A stretch of DNA of 64,000 nt from the sequence record KY608965.1; one strand, written 5' to 3'. Below, piece by piece: positions 3,258-63,032 of the stretch. The stretch's first letter is position 1. Every line of letters starts with the position of its first letter. Under the pieces are notes generated by a model. That model saw only the letters and a program-made list of their open reading frames with translations. It was not told the DNA's origin and made no database searches. This DNA is from Escherichia phage phiEC1. The position numbers and the translations under genes were made by a program.

Positions 3258-3890
3258 TCACAGTACGTTAGTTACAAGGGTAATGATTTCTTTGGACACA
3301 TTAGGGAAGTCAATGTAAGTATATTTACCACCGATCTTAATCTTAACATCATTTTCAAGAGAAGTAAACAGCTTTGATTCAGTTTCTGACATGTTGTATG
3401 CAAAGATTCTAAGAGCGCCATCTCGTCGAATTTCGATCTGACGAATACCTAGAACTCGTTTAGCGAATCGAACTTCTAAGTTACTACGGTTTTCACCAAT
3501 TTCTTTAACTTCAACTTTATCTTTAATATTTTCAAAAACAAAGTTTGCTAATTCATGCATTTCAGGAGTAACTCCACGTGCTTTTCTGGTGTTACGTTTC
3601 TGAAGAAGTTCTGGAGCATTTTCTTGGGCAAAGAGGTCTGCAGCTTTTTGGATAATATCCATTGCTTCGCCTGTTGCTACAAGTCCATCACCGGATTTTT
3701 CGACTAAACCTTTCTTAATCAATACACCAATGTTAGAGTTAACAACTGATGCATTGTATTCTGCTTCCAGAGCTTCACGGACATTGGCAGCAGTGGTGAA
3801 GTTGTTCTTAATGATATAAACCATTATTGCAGCAGTTTTTTCATTCAGAGCGTTTTCAGAAGCTTTGATGATGTAAGTAACTTTAGACAT
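3258..3890 (-). CDS. motA: middle-transcription activator MotA
   Basis: 210 aa; N-terminus MSKVTYIIKAS... and central NSNIGVLIKKGLVEKSGDGL segment match T4 MotA as recalled; GGAG SD. Confidence 0.9.
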   Translation of the reverse strand: MSKVTYIIKASENALNEKTAAIMVYIIKNNFTTAANVREALEAEYNASVVNSNIGVLIKKGLVEKSGDGLVATGEAMDIIQKAADLFAQENAPELLQKRNTRKARGVTPEMHELANFVFENIKDKVEVKEIGENRSNLEVRFAKRVLGIRQIEIRRDGALRIFAYNMSETESKLFTSLENDVKIKIGGKYTYIDFPNVSKEIITLVTNVL

Positions 3891-3946
3891 TTTATTTCTC
3901 CAAATTAGTATTTGTTTTGATAGGTCTATAATATCATGTTTGAAGC
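3882..3946. repeat. 65-bp direct repeat, copy A (promoter + leader + start codon of motA)
   Basis: Identical to 4201-4265 on visual alignment. Confidence 0.8.
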
Positions 3947-3956
3947 AAAAGTAAAC
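3928..3956 (-). promoter_or_regulatory. early promoter (GTTTAC N17 TATTAT) for motA
   Basis: Minus-strand GTTTAC (3956-3951), 17-nt spacer, TATTAT; part of the dispersed taggtctataatatcat module. Confidence 0.6.
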
Positions 3957-3993
3957 TTTATTTTGGGCTCTTTTTCAAAAGCCCTGGTAAAAT

Positions 3994-4209
3994 TTACAAA
4001 CTCATTTCTTTAATAAGGCCAATAAGTTTTGCCTTTTTAGAACGAAGCTTTTCTAAATGATATCCGTTTGAACCGCGAACCACTAAAGAATTGATTTCAA
4101 CTTCTAAGAAATTTAATTCTTCAACAAGTGCTTTACGAGGAGCATTCATACCAGGTTTAACTTTACCGAAACGAGTAGTTGTGTTTTGGGTTAATTTCAT
4201 TTTAGACAT
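3994..4209 (-). CDS. hypothetical protein (71 aa; motA.1-position)
   Basis: Start set to ATG at 4209 (MSKMKL...), preceded by the same GGAG leader as motA; the longer track ORF to 4269 would read through the promoter. Confidence 0.55.
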   Translation of the reverse strand: MSKMKLTQNTTTRFGKVKPGMNAPRKALVEELNFLEVEINSLVVRGSNGYHLEKLRSKKAKLIGLIKEMSL

Positions 4210-4265
4210 TTTATTTCTCCAAATTAGTATTTGTTTTGATAGGTCTATAATATCATGTTTGAAGC
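4201..4265. repeat. 65-bp direct repeat, copy B
   Basis: Identical to 3882-3946. Confidence 0.8.
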
Positions 4266-4275
4266 GCATGTAAAC
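4247..4275 (-). promoter_or_regulatory. early promoter (GTTTAC N17 TATTAT) for the 3994-4209 gene
   Basis: Same module as at 3928-3956; -35 GTTTAC at 4275-4270. Confidence 0.6.
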
Positions 4276-6553: not shown

Positions 6554-6582
6554 ATTATACTCTGCTCTCAAGAGTTTGTACA
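6554..6582 (-). promoter_or_regulatory. early promoter (TGTACA N17 TATAAT) for ndd, with -10 inside a GAGAGC/GCTCTC hairpin
   Basis: Minus-strand TATAAT in the loop of the inverted repeat at 6548-6569; -35-like TGTACA. Confidence 0.5.
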
Positions 6583-6585
6583 ATT

Positions 6586-6786
6586 TTATTCGGCTATATC
6601 AGAACGTTCAAAAAGCTCTTCAACAGTTAAACATTCAGTGTCATCTTCAATAAAGAATCGAGTCCAACACGTTGGGGCGATGCAGTTATGAGTTTGTCCG
6701 GCTATAGAAGCTACACGAATAAGCTGCTGTCCGTTATTCAGAACAAATTTTTCACCAATTTCAACATCTTTAAAAAGCTTAGCCAT
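6586..6786 (-). CDS. hypothetical protein (66 aa)
   Basis: ATG start with GAGGA SD; ndd.x position. Confidence 0.5.
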   Translation of the reverse strand: MAKLFKDVEIGEKFVLNNGQQLIRVASIAGQTHNCIAPTCWTRFFIEDDTECLTVEELFERSDIAE

Positions 6787-6815
6787 TTTGTGTTCCTCAT
6801 GTTTCAGTAGGACTA

Positions 6816-6844
6816 CTATACCATAATCCTACTGTGTTGTAAAC
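6816..6844 (-). promoter_or_regulatory. early promoter (GTTTAC N18 TATAGT)
   Basis: GTTTAC at 6844-6839; -10 TATAGT inside the TAGGACT...ATCCTA inverted repeat. Confidence 0.45.
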
Positions 6845-7036
6845 AATTAAATTACATTAAAATATGTTAAAGCCAACCATGTTCCAGTGAACGAACATGC
6901 AATGTAAAAACCCGTATCACAAATTGTTCTTAGTACAATAAGAAGTGCATTTTTCATAAGTACCTCAACACAATTGAAAATATTATACAAATCATTGGGA
7001 TACTAAGCAACCATATTCCGATCCACATTTTAGAGC

Positions 7037-7300
7037 TCATATCTCAACTTCCGCGAGTTCCATATATCCTTTGTTGATAACCTCTTTAAGGTCTTTAGAA
7101 AGAATAACACCAAAATGGTCGTTCATATGTCCGTTAACTAAACGAGTTATTTCAGCTTCAGATGACATATAAGGCACGTCTGAGTCCCAATGAGATAGAC
7201 TTAAATGAGTATAAATCATCCCTTCGTCATCTGCGGTGTTGTACATTGAAACAAATTCGCCTGTTACTTTATGTTTTGCGTAGAAAAATTTAAATTTCAT
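7037..7300 (-). CDS. hypothetical protein (87 aa)
   Basis: ATG start, SD AGAGGA. Confidence 0.5.
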   Translation of the reverse strand: MKFKFFYAKHKVTGEFVSMYNTADDEGMIYTHLSLSHWDSDVPYMSSEAEITRLVNGHMNDHFGVILSKDLKEVINKGYMELAEVEI

Positions 7301-7326
7301 GATGTTATCCTCTTTTAGATAGGACT

Positions 7327-7356
7327 ACTATATCATAGTCCTACTTAGTTGTAAAC
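7327..7356 (-). promoter_or_regulatory. early promoter (GTTTAC N18 TATAGT) within AGGACTA/TAGTCCT hairpin
   Basis: GTTTAC at 7356-7351; inverted repeat 7321-7342 encloses the -10. Confidence 0.5.
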
Positions 7357-7368
7357 ACTTTTATGAAA

Positions 7369-7926
7369 TTAAAGATGAAGATACCAGCCGTTGTAGTTGC
7401 TCTTGCGGACGGTTTTCTTTAGGTCTTCATGGTCTCCCACGAACTTTATAGAATAAGAGAAGACGTCAGGTGAGGTTTCTTTGACATCTAATATAATAAT
7501 GCAATCTGCGACTCGATGGTTCAAGAAGGGCCCTATATTGATTCCATTACCACCCGGATAATCACCACTGTATCCTGTGGTAACCGAAATCCATTTCGAA
7601 TCCATCTGATGGGTCTTTACTTCTACGCGTAGACCACAGTACTTAGGATGAGCTAAAACGTCCCATGCATACGTGTACGGGTCTTCTACGTCTTCAATAC
7701 CTTTATTAACATATCCGTCTAGCCAATTTGCTACTACATACTCGGCAAAGACTGCAACCTTACAACGTCGAACTACGTCTTCTTTTATTTGACCTGGATC
7801 TTGTTTCAACGAGTACCGAGCGGTATCAGCGATCTTCACCTTCATTTCGCTAGTCAAAAACTCATTCGACAGGATAAATGTCGGAAGATTCTTCAGTCTC
7901 AACAGCCCCAAGTTCGTCTTTACCAT
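7369..7926 (-). CDS. denB: probable endonuclease IV (DenB)
   Basis: Start set to internal ATG at 7926 (AGAGGT SD), giving 185 aa, the size of T4 DenB at the same map position; the longer track ORF starts at 7989. Confidence 0.45.
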   Translation of the reverse strand: MVKTNLGLLRLKNLPTFILSNEFLTSEMKVKIADTARYSLKQDPGQIKEDVVRRCKVAVFAEYVVANWLDGYVNKGIEDVEDPYTYAWDVLAHPKYCGLRVEVKTHQMDSKWISVTTGYSGDYPGGNGINIGPFLNHRVADCIIILDVKETSPDVFSYSIKFVGDHEDLKKTVRKSNYNGWYLHL

Positions 7927-8149
7927 AGATACCTCTGATGTGTAGTTCGCCAAAATAAATGCGGTCTCCTTCTTCAAGATATTCTGCATCTACAGGCGGG
8001 ATTTCAATAACAACTTCGTCGCATTCTAACCAGCCGTAGTGTGCATCACCAGGATGTTTTACCAATTTAGCACAATAAACTGATTTACACTTATGATGAC
8101 CACGAAGATTAGCAATTTTGGATTCTGATACGTCAAATGGATGAATCAT
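7862..8149 (-). CDS. hypothetical Cys/His-rich protein (95 aa)
   Basis: Track ORF begins with TTG inside the rIIB terminator; first ATG with AGGGG SD is at 8149; contains HHKCKSVYCAKLVKH; overlaps denB start by 65 nt. Confidence 0.35.
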   Translation of the reverse strand: MIHPFDVSESKIANLRGHHKCKSVYCAKLVKHPGDAHYGWLECDEVVIEIPPVDAEYLEEGDRIYFGELHIRGIYGKDELGAVETEESSDIYPVE

Positions 8150-8161
8150 AATTACCCCTAA

Positions 8162-8186
8162 AGAAAAAAAGGGGACCGAAGTCCCC
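8162..8186 (-). terminator. intrinsic terminator downstream of rIIB
   Basis: GGGGAC-UUCG-GUCCCC hairpin followed by UUUUUUUCUU on the minus strand. Confidence 0.65.
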
Positions 8187-8191
8187 AATTA

Positions 8192-9127
8192 TTATTCTGC
8201 AAATAATTCAGTAACGTCTGAAATTACTTCATAACGACAAGTACGCATCTTAGCATCACCATAGTCAACCGGGATGGATACAACATCACGTGGATGAACT
8301 TTAACTTTCACAACTTTATCTGAGCTTGAACCAAAGTGGCGAATATAAGATTTAGCACAAACGTGGAGACCGCGAGAACAGGTTTGAGTATCATCGTCGT
8401 TAACTCGAGTACGAGGCATTGAAACAACTTTACCTGGGGAGTTATCAAATGTACCACTATAGCAGTCTAAATAGTCCTTACGAACTACTTTCCACGCATA
8501 GAAATACCCATCTTCAGTGATTTCAATATCGTTTGCAACCAAGAAGTCGAATAAACGTTGTACAGCTTTTTCGCTTGGGTTTTCTAACAGGTTTTCAAGG
8601 AATGGCAGATAGAATTTAAAGTCTTCACCTTTTTCCATGGAATCAATAATACGGTTAACCAGTCCTGAACGAATCTCTATACCTTGATAAAATAAACTAC
8701 CACCTTCAATAGTAACATTACCATCAACAAACTTAGTAATAGCTTTCTTGATGTTAATAAGTTCGACAGCTTTACTAAGGTTTCCTGCGACCAGATTAGC
8801 TTTAATTTCTTCAAAATTTGCATGACTTGATGGGGTCGCATTGTATGCTACGCGTCCTTCAATAATTGAAATAAATTTAGATGACGCGTTCCATACGATT
8901 TCAGGACGATGTCCGCCGATAATAGGTTCATTATTTTCTTGGACCTGTTCTTCGTCTTCAAATTCAGCTGCTTTCTCTTCAGCTTTAAAGTTCTTAACAA
9001 TCTTACGAAGAGTGTCAGTGGAAATATTGAAGTAATCAGCAATTTCCCGACGGGTCCATTGGCCTGATTTAACCAGACCGTAAGCTTCTAACTGTTCTTC
9101 TTGAGACAAGCATTTAATATTGTACAT
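8192..9127 (-). CDS. rIIB: rIIB protein
   Basis: 311 aa immediately downstream of rIIA in the conserved rIIA-rIIB arrangement; ATG start. Confidence 0.85.
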   Translation of the reverse strand: MYNIKCLSQEEQLEAYGLVKSGQWTRREIADYFNISTDTLRKIVKNFKAEEKAAEFEDEEQVQENNEPIIGGHRPEIVWNASSKFISIIEGRVAYNATPSSHANFEEIKANLVAGNLSKAVELINIKKAITKFVDGNVTIEGGSLFYQGIEIRSGLVNRIIDSMEKGEDFKFYLPFLENLLENPSEKAVQRLFDFLVANDIEITEDGYFYAWKVVRKDYLDCYSGTFDNSPGKVVSMPRTRVNDDDTQTCSRGLHVCAKSYIRHFGSSSDKVVKVKVHPRDVVSIPVDYGDAKMRTCRYEVISDVTELFAE

Positions 9128-15992: not shown

Positions 15993-16022
15993 ATAGTATC
16001 ATAGACCATAGTTGTTGTACAT
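15993..16022 (-). promoter_or_regulatory. early-type promoter (-10 TACTAT in loop of GGTCTAT/ATAGACC hairpin)
   Basis: Inverted repeat 15988-16007; -35-like ATGTAC. Confidence 0.4.
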
Positions 16023-16546
16023 CATTTTAGCAAAATAAAATCAACTTGTTCTGCCAATGAACGTCTAAACATTAATTGACAACTTCCGAGGATGAAATCA
16101 GGTGCTTCATAGACCGCGATGTAGTATCCTTTAGCTTTCAAGAGTTCAACATCCACCTGGTCATCAAACCATGCATAAACCGCGTCAACGCTTTCAAATC
16201 CAAAATAGAACCCTTGAGCCCAATCTTTGTTCAATTCAAATGTGTGCTCAATTCTATGGTATCTTAAGATATTTTGTTCAAGGAGTTTGTCTTCATTTAC
16301 TGTAGGACGATTAGGGACATTATAGTTGTCGCCGTGATGGTAGAAGTTACCTGAGATTATTCCATGTTTATCAAGGAACTCCCATGTTTCTTCAGAGTTG
16401 TCAGTGCCAGACCAACCGTAAGGTGAGCGAGGTTCTTTATTCCAAGAGGTTTCCCAAATTCTGACGGCTTTACCGTCTTCGATAACAATTCCTGGTAATG
16501 ATTCACGTTGAGTACAAAAACTACGTTCTACGCGATAAACTAACAT
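16022..16546 (-). CDS. hypothetical protein (174 aa)
   Basis: ATG start with AGAGGAG SD. Confidence 0.55.
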   Translation of the reverse strand: MLVYRVERSFCTQRESLPGIVIEDGKAVRIWETSWNKEPRSPYGWSGTDNSEETWEFLDKHGIISGNFYHHGDNYNVPNRPTVNEDKLLEQNILRYHRIEHTFELNKDWAQGFYFGFESVDAVYAWFDDQVDVELLKAKGYYIAVYEAPDFILGSCQLMFRRSLAEQVDFILLK

Positions 16547-16572
16547 ATTATTCTCCTCTGGTTGATATGGTT

Positions 16573-16601
16573 ATAATATCAAAACCAGAGGAGAAGTAAA
16601 C
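16573..16601 (-). promoter_or_regulatory. early promoter (GTTTAC N17 TATTAT) with -10 in loop of SD-sequestering inverted repeat
   Basis: Arms CTCCTCTGGTT/AACCAGAGGAG (16556-16592); the 3' arm contains the GAGGAG SD of the 16022-16546 gene. Confidence 0.55.
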
Positions 16602-16605
16602 AACT

Positions 16606-17025
16606 TTATGCGAAAGCAGCTGGGCTATATTTTTTAATTTGGAATTCAGGAACTACCATGAACTGCCCGGCAAAAACAATGTTATAAAGCTTGACACCAT
16701 CTTCTACCCAACGGTCGCTAATAAATCCAGCGATTTGCTTAGTTTTCCATGGCGTTCCATCAGTTGCCGCAGCAATAGTGAATTCATGGTCTTTTTCAAC
16801 AGAAACTGATCTGCATAGTCCCCATTTGAACGCTTTTTCTTCTGGCTCAATGAACTGGCTTTTAACGTAACCAATGTTGCCATCAGCATCACGAACTTTA
16901 ACTTCATTACGACCAAAAACCGGATCACTCACAGAAAGAACTTCAACCAACTTCCCGGCAACTTTAGAGCGAGAAGCAACAGATACATATACGTAATCAC
17001 CTGTAGAGAGATTTACAATATTCAT
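16606..17025 (-). CDS. hypothetical protein, member 1 of a tandem paralogue triplet (139 aa)
   Basis: Shares N-terminal ASRSK.AG.LVEV and C-terminal GFISD.WVEDG.KLYNIVF.G.F.VV motifs with 17035-17490. Confidence 0.55.
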   Translation of the reverse strand: MNIVNLSTGDYVYVSVASRSKVAGKLVEVLSVSDPVFGRNEVKVRDADGNIGYVKSQFIEPEEKAFKWGLCRSVSVEKDHEFTIAAATDGTPWKTKQIAGFISDRWVEDGVKLYNIVFAGQFMVVPEFQIKKYSPAAFA

Positions 17026-17034
17026 AATAATTCC

Positions 17035-17490
17035 TTAAGCTTTACGAGGAGACACATAGCGAGTGATTTCAGATTCTTTAACAACTCGGAAGTCACCTAA
17101 GAATACGATATTGTATAACTTTTCACCATCTTCAACCCATTGGTCACTGATGAAGCCGCACATAATATCAGTTTTGTTTGGATAACCATATTCGTCGATG
17201 AAATCAAATTCTTTATCAGTCCGGAATTCAACGCCTTTGCAAAGGGCCCATTTGAACTGTACATTAGGTTCAGTAGAAGCAAAATGAGCGCTCACATGAG
17301 TTTCCAAGAATTTAGGACTTACGTAAGCGTACTGAGTTTCAGTTTTTCCAGAACTAGGAATGATTCGAACTTTAACTTCTTTAACACGTCCGGTACCATT
17401 AGTACGAAGTCCTACCACTTCAACTAGACGACCTGCAGCTTTAGAACGAGATGCAGACGATACACGCTTAATTTCACCAATAGTAATCAT
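17035..17490 (-). CDS. hypothetical protein, member 2 of the paralogue triplet (151 aa)
   Basis: Conserved C-terminal GFISDQWVEDGEKLYNIVFLGDF motif; ATG start. Confidence 0.55.
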   Translation of the reverse strand: MITIGEIKRVSSASRSKAAGRLVEVVGLRTNGTGRVKEVKVRIIPSSGKTETQYAYVSPKFLETHVSAHFASTEPNVQFKWALCKGVEFRTDKEFDFIDEYGYPNKTDIMCGFISDQWVEDGEKLYNIVFLGDFRVVKESEITRYVSPRKA

Positions 17491-17522
17491 AATTTCTCTC
17501 TCTCTTTGTTTAAATTGAATTC

Positions 17523-17551
17523 ATTATACTCCATCCATCCTTGGATGTACA
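17523..17551 (-). promoter_or_regulatory. early promoter (TGTACA N17 TATAAT), repeat family 2
   Basis: Within the ttatactccatccatccttggatgtaca module. Confidence 0.5.
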
Positions 17552-17554
17552 ACA

Positions 17555-18049
17555 TTAATTAAGGATATTAACCACAGCACTACGTGGAACCACACTAAAA
17601 TCACCGGCATGAACAACGTTCAGAAGTTCAACACCGTCTTCAATCCACTGATCAGTTACCCATCCATTTACTGGACCTGCGAACGGACGTCGAATTGAAA
17701 CATATTTACACAACAAATCAGTAGGCTCAATAGGCTTAATCAGAGTACCGTACATACAAGCGATATCCATATCAATACAGATATCTTTAACGGGTTCTAC
17801 TTCTTCAATCAACAGTTCAAAGTCGGTGCTTGGAAGGGCGGTAGTAGAAATTGTACCATATGAATTTTTAATTTCTAAGAATAACCAAGGGCCTTCAACT
17901 TGTTTGATGAAGTTAACAATAGTGAAACTATTACCTTGAGTGGCACCTAAAATTTCACAAAACTTTTCATAAGCTCGCACTGAAGCACCATACCAGTTGA
18001 TTTGGTTTTCATCTTTCAGGATGTAAGTAGCCGTAGTATTGATATTCAT
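17555..18049 (-). CDS. hypothetical protein, member 3 of the paralogue triplet (164 aa; MotB-position)
   Basis: Track start is TTG; ATG at 18049 (MNINTT...) with AGGAAA SD; C-terminal GWVTDQWIEDGVELLNVVHAGDFSVVP motif; sits where T4 has motB. Confidence 0.5.
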   Translation of the reverse strand: MNINTTATYILKDENQINWYGASVRAYEKFCEILGATQGNSFTIVNFIKQVEGPWLFLEIKNSYGTISTTALPSTDFELLIEEVEPVKDICIDMDIACMYGTLIKPIEPTDLLCKYVSIRRPFAGPVNGWVTDQWIEDGVELLNVVHAGDFSVVPRSAVVNILN

Positions 18050-18079
18050 AATGTTTTCCTGTTTGGTTAAGATAGAAAG

Positions 18080-18109
18080 ATTATACTCCAACCATCCTTG
18101 GTTGTAAAC
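18080..18109 (-). promoter_or_regulatory. early promoter (GTTTAC N18 TATAAT), repeat family 2
   Basis: Module gttaagatag...ttatactccaaccatccttggttgtaaac at 18066-18109. Confidence 0.5.
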
Positions 18110-18113
18110 TGGT

Positions 18114-18791
18114 TTATCGCTGTTTTACACTTAACGGGTCAGGATTCTCAGGGACATCTTCAAGGCCAAGCGCATAACGCTGAGCATATTTTAACATCAA
18201 AATATCTTTAGCACAATCATGAATACTATCATGGGCAACGAATCCTTTTAGCGTACCCATCGGTAATGGACACATACTTAATCCTCGTGTCAACGAGTAA
18301 GCTTCGATTGCCGTACGAATATCACGTTGAGCCCAGAATTTAACCGGTTCTAATTTATCAGTATCAATATCTGGTTCAAGAACACCTTCATCACGATAGA
18401 GGTCACGAATCAAATCGACCAATATCGGGAAGTCAAAGCTCATACCACGGCACCACATCTGTGATTTCCATTGGTCAACTTTATTAGCTCGACAATAATC
18501 TAAAAAGATTTTAATGCCTTCAAGCGTAGTGACATCGTCTTCAGACGGGGCCAAGTTTTTACGTGCTTCAGCCGATTGTTCTTTCCACCATTTCATAGTG
18601 GATTTAGCGAAAACTCGCTTCCCTTTCTGAGAAGCTAAATTAAATTTAATTCGCTTACCTCGTTGAACAAGTTCTTCAAATGATTCAACAACTTCAGGGT
18701 CGGAATTATATGCAATAACCGCAAGGTCAATAACAGCCGCTTTTGATGTATTGCCGAATGTTTCAAAATCTATAATAACATCAGTGCTCAT
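18114..18791 (-). CDS. dexA: exonuclease A (DnaQ-like 3'-5' exonuclease)
   Basis: 225 aa; IIDFETFG...AVIDLAVIA and C-terminal HDSIHDCAKDILM motifs match T4 DexA as recalled. Confidence 0.9.
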   Translation of the reverse strand: MSTDVIIDFETFGNTSKAAVIDLAVIAYNSDPEVVESFEELVQRGKRIKFNLASQKGKRVFAKSTMKWWKEQSAEARKNLAPSEDDVTTLEGIKIFLDYCRANKVDQWKSQMWCRGMSFDFPILVDLIRDLYRDEGVLEPDIDTDKLEPVKFWAQRDIRTAIEAYSLTRGLSMCPLPMGTLKGFVAHDSIHDCAKDILMLKYAQRYALGLEDVPENPDPLSVKQR

Positions 18792-21221: not shown

Positions 21222-21250
21222 ATAATATCATGCCCTCAGGTAGTGTACAC
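21222..21250 (-). promoter_or_regulatory. early promoter (GTGTAC N17 TATTAT) for srd
   Basis: taggtctataatatcat module copy. Confidence 0.5.
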
Positions 21251-28320: not shown

Positions 28321-28350
28321 ACTATACTATAGTCCATCTATAATGTAAAC
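28321..28350 (-). promoter_or_regulatory. early promoter (GTTTAC N18 TATAGT) for sp within AGGACTA/TAGTCC hairpin
   Basis: Same aggactactata module type as at 7321 and 6809. Confidence 0.5.
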
Positions 28351-29633: not shown

Positions 29634-29662
29634 ATAATAACACAACTACTGGAGAAGTAAAC
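29634..29662 (-). promoter_or_regulatory. early promoter (GTTTAC N17 TATTAT) with -10 in loop of 10-bp SD-sequestering inverted repeat
   Basis: Arms CCAGTAGTTG/CAACTACTGG (29617-29652); the 3' arm overlaps the SD of the 29290-29607 gene. Confidence 0.55.
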
Positions 29663-52030: not shown

Positions 52031-52060
52031 ATTATACTCATCTCTCAAGAGTTTGTATAC
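52031..52060 (-). promoter_or_regulatory. early promoter (GTATAC N18 TATAAT) with -10 in loop of GAGAGA/TCTCTC hairpin
   Basis: Same architecture and shared aagagtttgta(t)ac segment as the ndd promoter. Confidence 0.5.
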
Positions 52061-59061: not shown

Positions 59062-59366
59062 TATAATGTTCTCTCAAATTTGTGGAAGCATTTACGGCAT
59101 TTCAATTTCAAGTTATCAGTGGTCCAGTTAACCAGTTGGACTTGGATAGTTCCACATTCCGGGCATGGATGTTTTGCTGCCGATTTGGCAGCATTTTCAC
59201 GTCGTTCAACCATTTTCATTATTTCGTTCCATGCCGGAGGAACGAACTCTTCTTCACCATGAATTTTATCTCGCTGAACAAATTCAATCTTTGAACTATC
59301 ATCAATAAACTTAACTAAGCCATGATTAGTGCTCATATCAATATCCTCTAGAAGACGTAGGTTCAT
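59061..59366 (-). CDS. zinc-ribbon protein (101 aa)
   Basis: CPECG...CRKC motif; ATG start. Confidence 0.5.
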   Translation of the reverse strand: MNLRLLEDIDMSTNHGLVKFIDDSSKIEFVQRDKIHGEEEFVPPAWNEIMKMVERRENAAKSAAKHPCPECGTIQVQLVNWTTDNLKLKCRKCFHKFERTL

Positions 59367-60316
59367 TATAACACCTCAATGGCATTTCGTAAACCGTCCG
59401 CTTTCGCATTCAGAGCTTTTAACGATTTAGTTTGTTCTGCAATCTGGGCTTCGACTTCTTTCAGACGAGATTTGAGGTACTCACGTTCTTCGCTCAAGTT
59501 GTCAACTTTTTCTACTTTAGGTTCTTTAATAGTCTTAAGTTTATACTCGTTAGGGTTCTTCAACTTAATTCGGGTACGAGAACTATATAACATTGATCCG
59601 TTATCTTCGGATTCGTCGAACGTTTCAACAACATCCATAGTCTCTAACAATGTAATAAGTTTATAAGACAACGAACGAATAGTTTTGTTGTGCTTATTAA
59701 TTTCTTCGGCTTTCATGGTACCGAGATTACGTGAGTAGTAATAAGGAACCTGGATATCAATTGATAATGATGCGTTACCATTACCAGTTGGTTTGAATAC
59801 TGCAGTAACCCAATCTTTAACATGAACTTTATTTGTACGGCCATCACCGCCAGTGAATAATTTACGAGAATGTTTAAAAAGCATATTCACTTGTTTATTG
59901 AATTCACAAGCAAATTTATCAGCAAATTTAGTTTCAGGAATGGTAGATAACCAATCAGCCAAATGAGTCTTTTTAACATCATTAACAATAGTGAATTCAA
60001 CCAAATCGGTTTTAGATGTCACAGATTTAATAAAGCTCGGCTTCATAAAGTTTTTGATGTTATCACGAGCTACAGTAGAAGATAATAAACGAGAACGTTT
60101 GAACCATTGAAGCAGGGTCCCTAATGAATGAGAATACGCATTCTGAGTATCTTTACAGATATGATTTTCTTGGCCTGTGTATGTACCAAAATCGCGAAGA
60201 ATACCACTTACTACATCTCGGTGTGGAACATCAAATCCTAGTGCACCAACAGCGCGCTGGGCATGAACGTTAGCGATAAGACCGGCAAAGTATTCAATGT
60301 AATGTGAACGTGTCAT
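59366..60316 (-). CDS. hypothetical protein with C-terminal coiled coil (316 aa)
   Basis: ATG start; C-terminal heptad-rich segment; family-2 promoter module upstream. Confidence 0.5.
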   Translation of the reverse strand: MTRSHYIEYFAGLIANVHAQRAVGALGFDVPHRDVVSGILRDFGTYTGQENHICKDTQNAYSHSLGTLLQWFKRSRLLSSTVARDNIKNFMKPSFIKSVTSKTDLVEFTIVNDVKKTHLADWLSTIPETKFADKFACEFNKQVNMLFKHSRKLFTGGDGRTNKVHVKDWVTAVFKPTGNGNASLSIDIQVPYYYSRNLGTMKAEEINKHNKTIRSLSYKLITLLETMDVVETFDESEDNGSMLYSSRTRIKLKNPNEYKLKTIKEPKVEKVDNLSEEREYLKSRLKEVEAQIAEQTKSLKALNAKADGLRNAIEVL

Positions 60317-60344
60317 AATATTTTCCTCTCGTTAAGATAGATTC

Positions 60345-60374
60345 ATTATACTCAAACCATCCTTGGTTGTAAAC
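60345..60374 (-). promoter_or_regulatory. early promoter (GTTTAC N18 TATAAT), repeat family 2
   Basis: Module gttaagatag...ttatactcaaaccatccttggttgtaaac at 60331-60374. Confidence 0.5.
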
Positions 60375-60378
60375 TGAT

Positions 60379-61335
60379 TTATGATTTTAATGCATTCATT
60401 GCGTTAAAAAGTTTAGAGTACTGCAACTGGAGATTGGTCACCACCTGTTGAGCATCACGAAGCTTAGCTTGTGCCTTATCAAGTTCAGCAGACAGTTGGT
60501 CTACAGTAGCCTTGATTTGATTGTAATGATAATCTTCAGCCGGAAGAAGGTCATTAGAAACATTTAGTTTTACTGCCGACAGTTTGCACACATTTGGCGA
60601 ACCTTTAAACATACCAGATTGTGCTGGAGAATATGCGCCTAGAACCTCTGCATTACCGACTGGTGTTGCTGTAATATTGCCTTCAAACAATGCATTTTCC
60701 TTTTTAAGATTTTGATAGTATTCAGAGTCTTTGTGCCACCATGGTGCAGGAACCTTTTTACCAATAGATACACGAGCCTGGATAGCGATATGGCCCTTAT
60801 TCTTGATAACGTCGATAATATTAAGCTCACGAGAATAAATTGCTTTAATCTCGTGGATATTATCACCTAAAACTTCCAACGCTTGATGGAATACACGAGC
60901 AACGTTATCATTCTTAGGTTTATACGTAAGAGTAAACTCATTCTCACTGATAACCATGATTTCTAACTTATCGTAAGTATATTTCAAATGTTTCATGTTA
61001 ATTGCTTGAGGACGAATACGAGAAGCAATGGCCATCAAATTGTTAAGGTTATTTCTGAACTGTTTAGCAAAATATTGTCCATAACCGCCAATACAAAAAT
61101 TACGAAGTTTCTGTTTGGCCAGTAAACGGCTGAACTCACCATTTTTAATGAACTCTTTAACGGGTGTGTTAGTAACACATTCAAATTGAGTAAACTTACG
61201 AGAATTAATCCCATAATACGAACAGATTTCCTCAATCTCTTCAGGAGTCTTTACAGGCATACGGATAGGATTAGGTCCTGGAGTATATGCGTTCGAGGTA
61301 AATTCTTTGATAAGTTCTCTACGTGTAATAGCCAT
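60379..61335 (-). CDS. hypothetical protein with C-terminal coiled coil (318 aa)
   Basis: ATG start; C-terminal coiled coil. Confidence 0.5.
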   Translation of the reverse strand: MAITRRELIKEFTSNAYTPGPNPIRMPVKTPEEIEEICSYYGINSRKFTQFECVTNTPVKEFIKNGEFSRLLAKQKLRNFCIGGYGQYFAKQFRNNLNNLMAIASRIRPQAINMKHLKYTYDKLEIMVISENEFTLTYKPKNDNVARVFHQALEVLGDNIHEIKAIYSRELNIIDVIKNKGHIAIQARVSIGKKVPAPWWHKDSEYYQNLKKENALFEGNITATPVGNAEVLGAYSPAQSGMFKGSPNVCKLSAVKLNVSNDLLPAEDYHYNQIKATVDQLSAELDKAQAKLRDAQQVVTNLQLQYSKLFNAMNALKS

Positions 61336-61362
61336 TTTATATTCCTCATGTTGAAAAATTTA

Positions 61363-61391
61363 TTATACTCCAACCATCCTTGGTTGTACAT
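61363..61391 (-). promoter_or_regulatory. early promoter (-10 TATAAT), repeat family 2
   Basis: Module ttatactccaaccatccttggttgtaca. Confidence 0.45.
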
Positions 61392-62386
61392 CATTCCTTA
61401 AGAAGTTTTACTACTTGAATAAGATTAGCTCGTTCTGTTTTATTTTTACCGTTTAAGCCTGCTAATCGTGAGATTTCATCGTCAGTCTGTTGAATAGTTA
61501 CATTAAGTTCGTTAATCAAAGCTTCAAAGTATTTGATTTGCTCAGCATGTTTTGATTCAAATTTCTGAACCGGAATAACGTCTTGGTTTAGTTCGTCAAT
61601 AAGGTCTTTAAGAGCATCTTCTTGGTTGATATCGTATTCAACTTCTTTTATTTCTTCAACGAGCTCGTCTTTATATCTAACGTCTTTTAGTCCTGGAGCT
61701 GGTCCTGAAATCTCTTCTTTAAGAGTACAAACATACCCAATACGGTATCCAATGCCGTCTCGCTTGATATCAACTTCGTCGATAAATCCACAATGTTTAA
61801 GACCAGAGCCGATTATGTCAAAATATCCTTGACGTCGTCCTTCAAACGTTACACGAACTACTAAGACAGTTTTGCCACCGACCTTTTGAAGCTCACATTT
61901 ATAAAAGTTTGTTGAACCTGAATAACGTGGATGAGTTTTAAAGTTCATCTGACGATCTAAGCCCATTTGTAAACGTGCTGTTACAGCCATAAAACGTGTT
62001 TGGTTCTCGTTAAGATGAGCAACGATCCATTTCAAAGGCATTTTACACTGTTCACGTCCGAACAAATCAGTACGTCCTAGATTACGCAGGATGTTGTTAG
62101 AGTTAATCATCGACAGAACGTTAAGTTTATTCAGCGCGCTGAAGATTCCATCAGCCATTGATTTTCCATAACCTTTACACGCTTTAATAAGCGCTCGCGG
62201 CAGATTAGTATAGATTTCAGACGGCATATGAAAATCAAATTTACTAGTCAGTAATTGATGAACTTGGATAGCAATTTGCTCATAATTAAGTGCTCTGCGA
62301 TCGTTATGGTCTTTAAACCACACTTTAATCTGTGAAGCACATAAACCGTTAATTTCATGTTTTACCGCATCAGATGTAATGCTCAT
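61391..62386 (-). CDS. hypothetical protein with C-terminal coiled coil (331 aa)
   Basis: ATG start; C-terminal coiled coil. Confidence 0.5.
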   Translation of the reverse strand: MSITSDAVKHEINGLCASQIKVWFKDHNDRRALNYEQIAIQVHQLLTSKFDFHMPSEIYTNLPRALIKACKGYGKSMADGIFSALNKLNVLSMINSNNILRNLGRTDLFGREQCKMPLKWIVAHLNENQTRFMAVTARLQMGLDRQMNFKTHPRYSGSTNFYKCELQKVGGKTVLVVRVTFEGRRQGYFDIIGSGLKHCGFIDEVDIKRDGIGYRIGYVCTLKEEISGPAPGLKDVRYKDELVEEIKEVEYDINQEDALKDLIDELNQDVIPVQKFESKHAEQIKYFEALINELNVTIQQTDDEISRLAGLNGKNKTERANLIQVVKLLKE

Positions 62387-63003: not shown

Positions 63004-63032
63004 ATAATAACATAACCATAGACCTTGTAAAC
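63004..63032 (-). promoter_or_regulatory. early promoter (GTTTAC N17 TATTAT)
   Basis: Shares the 27-mer ccagtagttgataggtctataataaca with the promoter at 29617-29643. Confidence 0.55.

Follow-up and report, generated by a model that had tools for sequence, protein, structure and literature searches.

Promoter-early stem-loops (PeSLs) were described in the phages RB49/phi1 (Arbiol et al. 2010, PMC2839356) and in PST/T4 and nt-1/KVP40 (Comeau et al. 2014, PMC4122927), where they mediate the insertion, deletion, and replacement of open reading frames (ORFs) in hyperplastic regions. A stem-loop placed between the −35 and −10 hexamers was among the commonest arrangements in the original definition (PMC2839356). 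A 64,000-nucleotide (nt) stretch of Escherichia phage phiEC1 (sequence record KY608965.1), hereafter called the window, contained four copies of a promoter module of this kind, two at the motB locus and two at the nrdC locus 43 kb away. The window came from an RB69-like T4-type phage of the genus Mosigvirus, with 97–99% identity to EP02SG, JQD51, and RB69 in the two regions that were examined. The four copies probably (at roughly 80%) represent one T4-type early-promoter subfamily, the members of which act as PeSL-type cassettes and as recombination sites.

Like a PeSL, the module was a repeated intergenic motif, here in four copies, which extended from the upstream stop codon to the downstream Shine-Dalgarno sequence or start codon. 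It had the −35/N17/−10 architecture of a sigma-70-type promoter with a stem-loop in or next to the promoter, in this case in the spacer. Both lie in variable regions near small accessory, non-essential ORFs, and the motB and nrdC.x loci differed from those of T4. Insertions and deletions of single ORFs bounded by two copies leave a chimeric copy behind in both systems, although only deletions were seen for this module. The module differed from the described PeSLs in that it was found in another genus and formed a smaller and tighter family, with four copies and identity of up to 48 exact bases. Its stem was a short CA-rich/GT-rich helix of 5–6 base pairs (bp) with an AGGA loop, instead of a G-tract/C-tract stem, and was too weak to look terminator-like. 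Furthermore, the AT-rich upstream element appeared to be largely replaced by coding sequence. In the literature search, no paper was found that treated PeSLs together with RB69. The four-copy module extends the known PeSL-type shuffling and is no new mechanism. The picture in which accessory early genes are gained, lost, and reordered via promoter-cassette recombination is thereby extended to the RB69 phages, a group in wide use for phage therapy isolates and in structural biology.

Sequence and position of the four copies

The 28-bp consensus of the module gave exactly four matches in the window when up to three mismatches were allowed (17524–17551, 18081–18108, 60346–60373, and 61363–61390), with 0.00 matches expected from 100 shuffles. 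A looser pattern in International Union of Pure and Applied Chemistry (IUPAC) code retrieved the same four sites, with 0.01 expected. An earlier note on this DNA had reported a four-copy repeat, and its coordinates were right to within 1–2 bases. The 29-bp core on the minus strand was composed of T(T/G)TACA, a 17-bp spacer of the form (A/T)CCAAGGATGG(T/A)T(G/T)GAG, and TATAAT. The pairwise identity of the core among the window copies was 25–28 of 29 positions. Copies 2 and 3 were also alike in their flanks, with 48 of 57 positions identical, including the gttaagatag motif (18066–18075 and 60332–60341), and the resemblance covered approximately 18066–18111 in copy 2 and 60332–60376 in copy 3. 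The similarity of the copies held up when they were aligned by computation.

The gene names used here (motB.1, motB, nrdC.3, nrdC.5, nrdC.6, and dexA) were taken from the curated RB69 annotation, and all genes around the four modules were located on the minus strand, as were the modules. Copy 2 (18080–18108), the predicted early promoter of motB.1, contained TTTACA at 18108–18103, a 17-bp spacer, and TATAAT at 18085–18080, and began 5 nt past the dexA stop codon (18116–18114). Copy 1 (17523–17551), the predicted early promoter of motB, contained TGTACA and TATAAT separated by 17 bp, and began 3 nt past the motB.1 stop codon. At the nrdC locus, copy 3 (60345–60373) was located between the upstream gene nrdC.5 and its predicted target nrdC.3, and had TTTACA, 17 bp, and TATAAT. 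Copy 4 (61362–61390), the predicted early promoter of nrdC.5, had TGTACA, 17 bp, and TATAAT, and its −35 directly abutted the TGA stop codon of nrdC.6. Across the four copies, the gap between stop codon and −35 was 0–5 nt and the distance from −10 to ATG was 26–32 nt, with a Shine-Dalgarno sequence in between. Because the gaps on both sides are short, each module occupies the entire intergenic space. The DNA upstream was the end of a coding sequence in all four cases, and copies 2 and 3 had GATAAACCAG and ATCATAAATCAG.

Among relatives, the −10 of copy 1 (17523–17528 in the window and 8344–8349 in RB69; L014, L024, L029, and L030) varied between TATAAT, TATAAA, TATAGT, and TATAGC, and copies 2, 3, and 4 retained TATAAT. 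The variable −10 of copy 1 suggests that constraint is relaxed if transcription can be supplied by a copy further upstream.

Promoter identity and frequency

The four copies matched 10–11 of the 12 sigma-70 consensus positions at the exact 17-bp spacing and were the best-scoring sigma-70-like sites in both regions, in agreement with the TATAAT −10 and the GTTTAC/TGTACA −35 proposed in the earlier note. The reading of the module as a putative sigma-70-type (T4 early) promoter, placed at leader length before the start codons, was supported by these features. The surrounding genes were orthologues of T4 early-region genes. T4 early promoters follow the consensus GTTTAC ... TATAAT, with an UP region rich in A and, ahead of the −10, a stretch rich in G and T. 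The latter element coincided with the 3′ arm of the module palindrome.

A list of 58 predicted RB69 early promoters, based on a hidden Markov model (HMM), was published by Nolan et al. in 2006 (PMC1524935), and the RB69/T4 early promoters described there have the same hexamers and spacing as the module. The RB69 orthologues of copies 1, 2, 3, and 4 were entered in that list as Pe:8387, Pe:8947, Pe:51019, and Pe:52042, with HMM scores of 6.2, 27.2, 27.8, and 18.2, respectively, and the four sites are already known as predicted promoters. In Pe:8387, the −10 had decayed to TATAAA. The promoters were handled in 2006 as independent consensus matches, whereas the common spacer and flanks of these four sites and the deletable genes that they bracket were unreported there. 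The RB69 genome, searched as a stitched sequence of 167,560 bp, contained the module exactly four times, at these same loci and on the minus strand, even at 7 mismatches in 29. A motif ubiquitous upstream of early genes was ruled out, with 4 of the 58 predicted RB69 early promoters belonging to the module and four copies in the whole genome.

Loss of single genes between neighboring copies

The genes motB.1 and nrdC.5 were each bracketed by two module copies in direct orientation. In contig L027, the dexA flank was followed by the −35 and spacer of copy 2 and then by the leader of copy 1 and motB, and motB.1 was missing. In contig L031, the nrdC.6 flank was followed by the −35 of copy 4 and then by the leader of copy 3 and nrdC.3, and nrdC.5 was missing. 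An artefact of metagenome assembly was ruled out as the cause, as the same junctions were present in complete genomes of cultured isolates. The motB.1 gene was absent from at least eight isolates (PTK, vB_VIPECOMC06, ST2, S143_2, AV114, AV115, AV118, and PNJ-9), which is a lower bound because in normal genomes BLAST merged the two pieces even when the query was 80 bp long. The nrdC.5 gene was absent from 21 of 153 phage records, including p000v, G2469, F2, and AV115. In AV115, the annotated loci confirmed the gene content, both motB.1 and nrdC.5 were gone, and the crossovers at the junctions were located inside the module. The junctions at the nrdC locus were of two types, with either gaat or cttt after the −10. 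Since homologues of both genes are present in T4, the absence of nrdC.5 and motB.1 is most simply explained by deletion.

The modular shuffling suggested in the earlier note is supported directly by the apparent loss of single genes between neighboring copies, as natural phages without the intervening gene have one chimeric module remaining; the events observed were deletions only. The same two module-bounded single-gene deletions recurred in sequenced isolates, and both motB.1 and nrdC.5 are dispensable, as natural isolates without each of them exist. For engineering, the four sites might serve as natural landing pads.

Copies at distant loci also had sequence in common. RB69 copies 2 and 3, located 42 kb apart and before unrelated genes, had a 48-bp exact run in common, which was the longest such run among all 58 RB69 early promoters. 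A central T/C polymorphism (GGATGG or GGACGG) occurred at each of the four loci as well as in Dhakavirus. In addition, the tetranucleotide after the −10 of copy 3 was cttt in RB69, as in copy 2, and gaat in the window, as in copy 1. These common polymorphisms suggest that distant copies may also exchange sequence by ectopic conversion.

In the proposed mechanism, the host sigma-70 RNA polymerase would read the four promoters. The order of elements in each cassette is the upstream stop codon, the −35, the stem-loop in the spacer, the −10, the leader with its Shine-Dalgarno sequence, and the start codon. Each copy would start early transcription of its own cargo, namely motB.1 for copy 2, motB and ORF010c for copy 1, nrdC.5 for copy 4, and nrdC.3 and the following genes for copy 3. 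Comparison of the genomes shows that the copies are used as crossover points by the homologous recombination of the phage, because they are near-identical direct repeats, and that recombination between neighboring copies deletes the single gene between them and leaves one chimeric module. Ectopic conversion would keep distant copies alike despite their unrelated cargo. The hairpin might form in read-through RNA or in single-stranded DNA, a step that is weakly supported.

Several observations weigh against this mechanism. The activity and timing of the promoters are predictions from sequence. Losses were the only events documented for the module, and gains, moves, and transposition of cargo are what we infer. 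New cargo was not found in the exact-pattern scans of IMG/VR, metagenomes, and sampled genomes. The homology between copies 1 and 2 was short, with exact runs of 10–11 bp, and the motB.1 deletions would therefore have used microhomology or a previously converted copy. The isolates that carry the deletions may be of common ancestry, so that the record counts given above may not correspond to independent events. The hairpin was weak in RNA folding, with energies of −6 to −9.4 kcal/mol and z-scores of +0.08 to −1.4 against shuffled sequences, and the covariation described below rests on a single base pair. An intrinsic terminator was not supported, as the hairpin had no U-tract, was not flagged by the terminator scan, and had non-significant z-scores.

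The spacer hairpin and alternative explanations

The promoter spacer contained a palindrome that could form a stem of 5–6 bp with an AGGA loop. On the minus strand, the sequence was CAACCA-AGGA-TGGTTG in copy 2 (18089–18104) and copy 4 (61371–61386), and CATCCA..TGGATG in copy 1 (17532–17547), the spacer of which had the T/A variant. The stem of copy 3 (60355–60368) was 5 bp long. The Dhakavirus copy had CATCCA..TGGATG as in copy 1, and the T4 version before nrdC.3 had AGCCA..TGGCT. Among 11 distinct sequences, the varying pair was AU in four, UA in four, GC in two, and GU in one, and the other pairs were invariant or occasionally broken. The covariation score was above all but 1 of 500 shuffles; wider ortholog sampling with nrdC.3 returned four loci only, which limited the sampling of covariation.

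Three more RB69 early promoters had an AGGA-loop hairpin right after the −35, with the stems TACCACA/TGTGGTA, AACACC/GGTGTT, and CACCA/TGGTG. The AGGA-loop hairpin was thus present in 7 of the 58 RB69 early promoters with five different stems, where approximately 0.06 would be expected by chance in 58 spacers according to our own estimate from 21 genome-wide matches. The T4 rnlA promoter retained a CCACA..TGTGG stem with a TGGAG loop, and its −35 was replaced by a MotA box. The hairpin was regarded as real, and a role as an attenuator, 3′-end, or processing element is weakly supported. A strong structural role is disfavored by its low folding energy, the missing U-tract, and the overlap of its 3′ arm with the GT-rich stretch of T4 early promoters. 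It is rather doubtful that the AGGA-loop hairpin after the −35 is a dedicated cis-element conserved across T-even genera, with the four-copy family as its latest amplification. If this were true, the element could bind or be processed by a phage or host factor that controls how early promoters are shut off or what becomes of read-through mRNA, or could be a preferred recombination site.

The spacer might also be an operator, at which a dimeric phage or host protein, such as a MotB-family autoregulator, binds CAACCA-N4-TGGTTG and co-regulates the four promoters, so that the identity of the copies would come from selection for binding. The palindrome is perfect over 16 bp and is placed where a repressor would block RNA polymerase, the spacer was conserved more than the flanks across Mosigvirus and Dhakavirus, and two of the four promoters drive MotB-family genes. 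In addition, the mechanism that shuts off T4 early promoters has been described as incompletely understood. However, the arm variants A/T and T/A coexisted in one genome and changed together, which preserved pairing and not a fixed half-site. In related promoters, the AGGA loop was retained on stems of quite another sequence, and the position of the element with respect to the −10 shifted by 1–4 bp. An operator, which we consider unlikely, also leaves the chimeric deletion junctions and the identical flanks of copies 2 and 3 unexplained. About equally improbable is an RNA processing signal, in which the phage endoribonuclease RegB, together with ribosomal protein S1, would cut read-through transcripts at the GGAG that follows the conserved hairpin. 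The upstream message would then be split off from the downstream one, with the hairpin as protection at its 3′ end, and this function could coexist with a promoter role. RegB cuts the intergenic GGAG of early mRNAs with the consensus GGAGRAYARAA. Most copies, as well as the T4 version before nrdC.3, had GGAG immediately behind the 3′ arm, and GGAGUAUAAU(G/A/C) fitted 4–5 of the 7 positions after GGAG. RB69 encodes regB, and one variant (L020) converted an A-U pair to G-U on the sense RNA only. Nevertheless, copy 3 of the window had TGAG, the T4 nrdC.4 version was without GGAG, and the match to the extended consensus was partial. The RNA hairpin was no more stable than shuffled sequence, and the GT-rich element that precedes the −10 boxes of T4 early promoters could by itself account for GGAG.

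Common descent offers a further account, in which the copies are remnants of tandem duplications of promoter plus gene (the MotB paralogues and nrdC.3/4/5) without a role in recombination. This account is supported by the paralogy of motB.1, motB, and ORF010c, by the weak paralogy of nrdC.3 and nrdC.4, and by the diverged modules that T4 has before both of the latter. On the other hand, identity was 86–100% between the promoters but no higher than 43% between the paralogous proteins, some of which BLAST could not relate to each other, and copies at distant loci before unrelated genes had up to 48 exact bases in common. The T4 versions before nrdC.3 and nrdC.4 differed strongly, whereas the Mosigvirus copies were homogenized. 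Together with the polymorphisms common to several copies and the deletion junctions inside the module, these points make simple duplication a very remote explanation. PeSL-type cassettes that serve as recombination sites remain the preferred reading of the four copies.

Distribution in related phages

A BLAST search with a 53-bp copy matched 209 phage records, in which Mosigvirus genomes had 2–4 places each and Dhakavirus-type genomes a single place. No Tequatrovirus match was obtained in this search at E ≤ 0.01, and T4 was not among the matches. Pattern scans gave 10 loci in IMG/VR and 12 loci in metagenomes, with four copies in each complete Mosigvirus contig and one copy in Dhakavirus-like contigs. 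In these scans, the module was found nowhere but in its four known contexts, in the nrdC.4 context of Dhakavirus, and in the two deletion chimeras. Mosigvirus (four copies) and Dhakavirus (one copy) are the only genera with the exact module, and T4 has diverged relatives only. The single Dhakavirus copy was located upstream of the orthologue of T4 nrdC.4, a gene that Mosigvirus lacks exactly at the position of copy 3.

When the orthologous intergenic regions of T4 were inspected, diverged versions of the module were found before nrdC.4 (GTTTACTTTGCCACAAGGATGTGGTATAAT) and nrdC.3 (TTTAAAGCCAAGGATGGCTCGGAGTATAAAT). They shared the position in the nrdC array and the AGGA-loop hairpin with the module, but had other stems (CCACA/TGTGG and AGCCA/TGGCT) and an element shifted relative to the −10, and the nrdC.3 version had degenerate hexamers. 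No module copies were found at the T4 motB locus. Since versions were present in the T4 nrdC array and none at T4 motB, the element is old in the nrdC array, and the two copies at the motB locus are specific to Mosigvirus.

The gene order at the motB locus also differed. In T4, it was dexA-motB.2-motB.1-motB-cef (6653–8908, L019), whereas in the window (16022–18791) and RB69 it was dexA-motB.1-motB-ORF010c-motB.2-cef. The motB.2 gene and its own promoter seem to have moved as a unit. The dexA.1 and dexA.2 genes were absent from the motB locus of the window and RB69.

Genes at the two loci

The dexA gene (18114–18791, minus strand, as are all genes of this section) was located upstream of copy 2, and its transcripts would read through that copy. 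The motB.1 gene (17555–18049), bracketed by copies 2 and 1, encodes a protein of 164 amino acids, the C-terminal half of which matched the MotB family. The motB gene (17035–17490), the cargo of copy 1, encodes a protein of 151 amino acids. It was followed after 9 bp by its paralogue ORF010c (16606–17025), which was without a module of its own. All three proteins matched Pfam PF17613, and motB and ORF010c were 43% identical by BLAST, which agrees with the earlier placement of the module before two members (motB.1 and motB) of a paralogue triplet. In RB69, positions 8376–8872 (L005) carried motB.1 with 133 amino acids and a separate ORF012c of 30 amino acids, whereas the window (17555–18049) and most relatives had the single motB.1 of 164 amino acids. 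The split annotation of motB.1 in RB69 probably reflects a frameshift or a sequencing difference.

At the nrdC locus, nrdC.6 (61391–62386; 331 amino acids) was located upstream of copy 4, which its transcripts would read through. The nrdC.5 gene (60379–61335; 318 amino acids, DUF7235) was bracketed by copies 4 and 3, and nrdC.3 (59366–60316; 316 amino acids) was the cargo of copy 3. The module was accordingly found before two of the three adjacent genes, nrdC.3 and nrdC.5, the third being nrdC.6, in line with the earlier note, which had placed it before two of three putative coiled-coil genes 43 kb away. No mutual similarity was detected by BLAST among the nrdC.3, nrdC.5, and nrdC.6 proteins. 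Paralogy of these three genes was unsupported by BLAST, and weak similarity was seen only between nrdC.3 and nrdC.4 (E-values of 6e-5 to 2e-6). The window nrdC.5 was just 26% identical to T4 nrdC.5, and their orthology is uncertain. Several records labeled the whole nrdC.x array as thioredoxin, which looks like annotation carry-over from nrdC. In phage ATK47, a site inside the nrdC.6 orthologue (L004, 3432–3442) had been annotated by the depositor as 'direct repeat sequence1 posible binding site of StbAB'.

Other promoter repeats in the window

Other promoter subfamilies of the window behaved alike, as exemplified by a repeat-flanked ORF between genes 52 and motA that some relatives have and others lack. 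A direct repeat of approximately 62 bp (3881–4274, minus strand) covered the motA promoter cassette, GTTTAC..GCTTCAAACATGATATTATAGACCTATCAAAACAAATACTAATTTGGAGAAATAAAATGTCTAAA, and included the MotA-box-like TGCTTCA, the Shine-Dalgarno sequence, the ATG, and the first three codons. The two copies flanked a small ORF of approximately 71 amino acids (ATG at 4207, stop at 3994). This ORF was found in approximately 76 phage records and was absent from RB69 and many Mosigviruses, which were shorter by exactly the 319-bp repeat spacing.

A second subfamily (6554–6582 and 52031–52059, minus strand) had the form (T/G)(G/A)TACAAACTCTTGAGAG..GAGTATAAT followed by a complementary arm (gctctc or tctctc), and the inverted repeat therefore brackets the −10. 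It had four copies in RB69, two of which had a 33-bp exact run in common, and the T4 motB promoter was of this type (GGGACC..GGTCCC). Larger subfamilies on the minus strand had the −10 and the initial transcribed region in common, namely TATAGTAGTCCTATC, with approximately 10 copies in RB69, and TATTATAGACCTATCA. Their sites were 6815–6843, 7327–7355, and 28321–28349, and also 3928–3955, 4247–4274, 21222–21249, 29634–29661, and 63004–63031, and an inverted repeat (TAGGACTA..TAGTCCTA) had its 5′ arm in the spacer.

At 16573–16600 (the motB.2 promoter), 29634–29661, and 63004–63031, all on the minus strand, the spacer and the Shine-Dalgarno region downstream of it were complementary, as in ctcctctggtt ... 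aaccagaggag. At these promoters, the ribosome-binding site would be expected to be sequestered in read-through transcripts but not in locally started ones.

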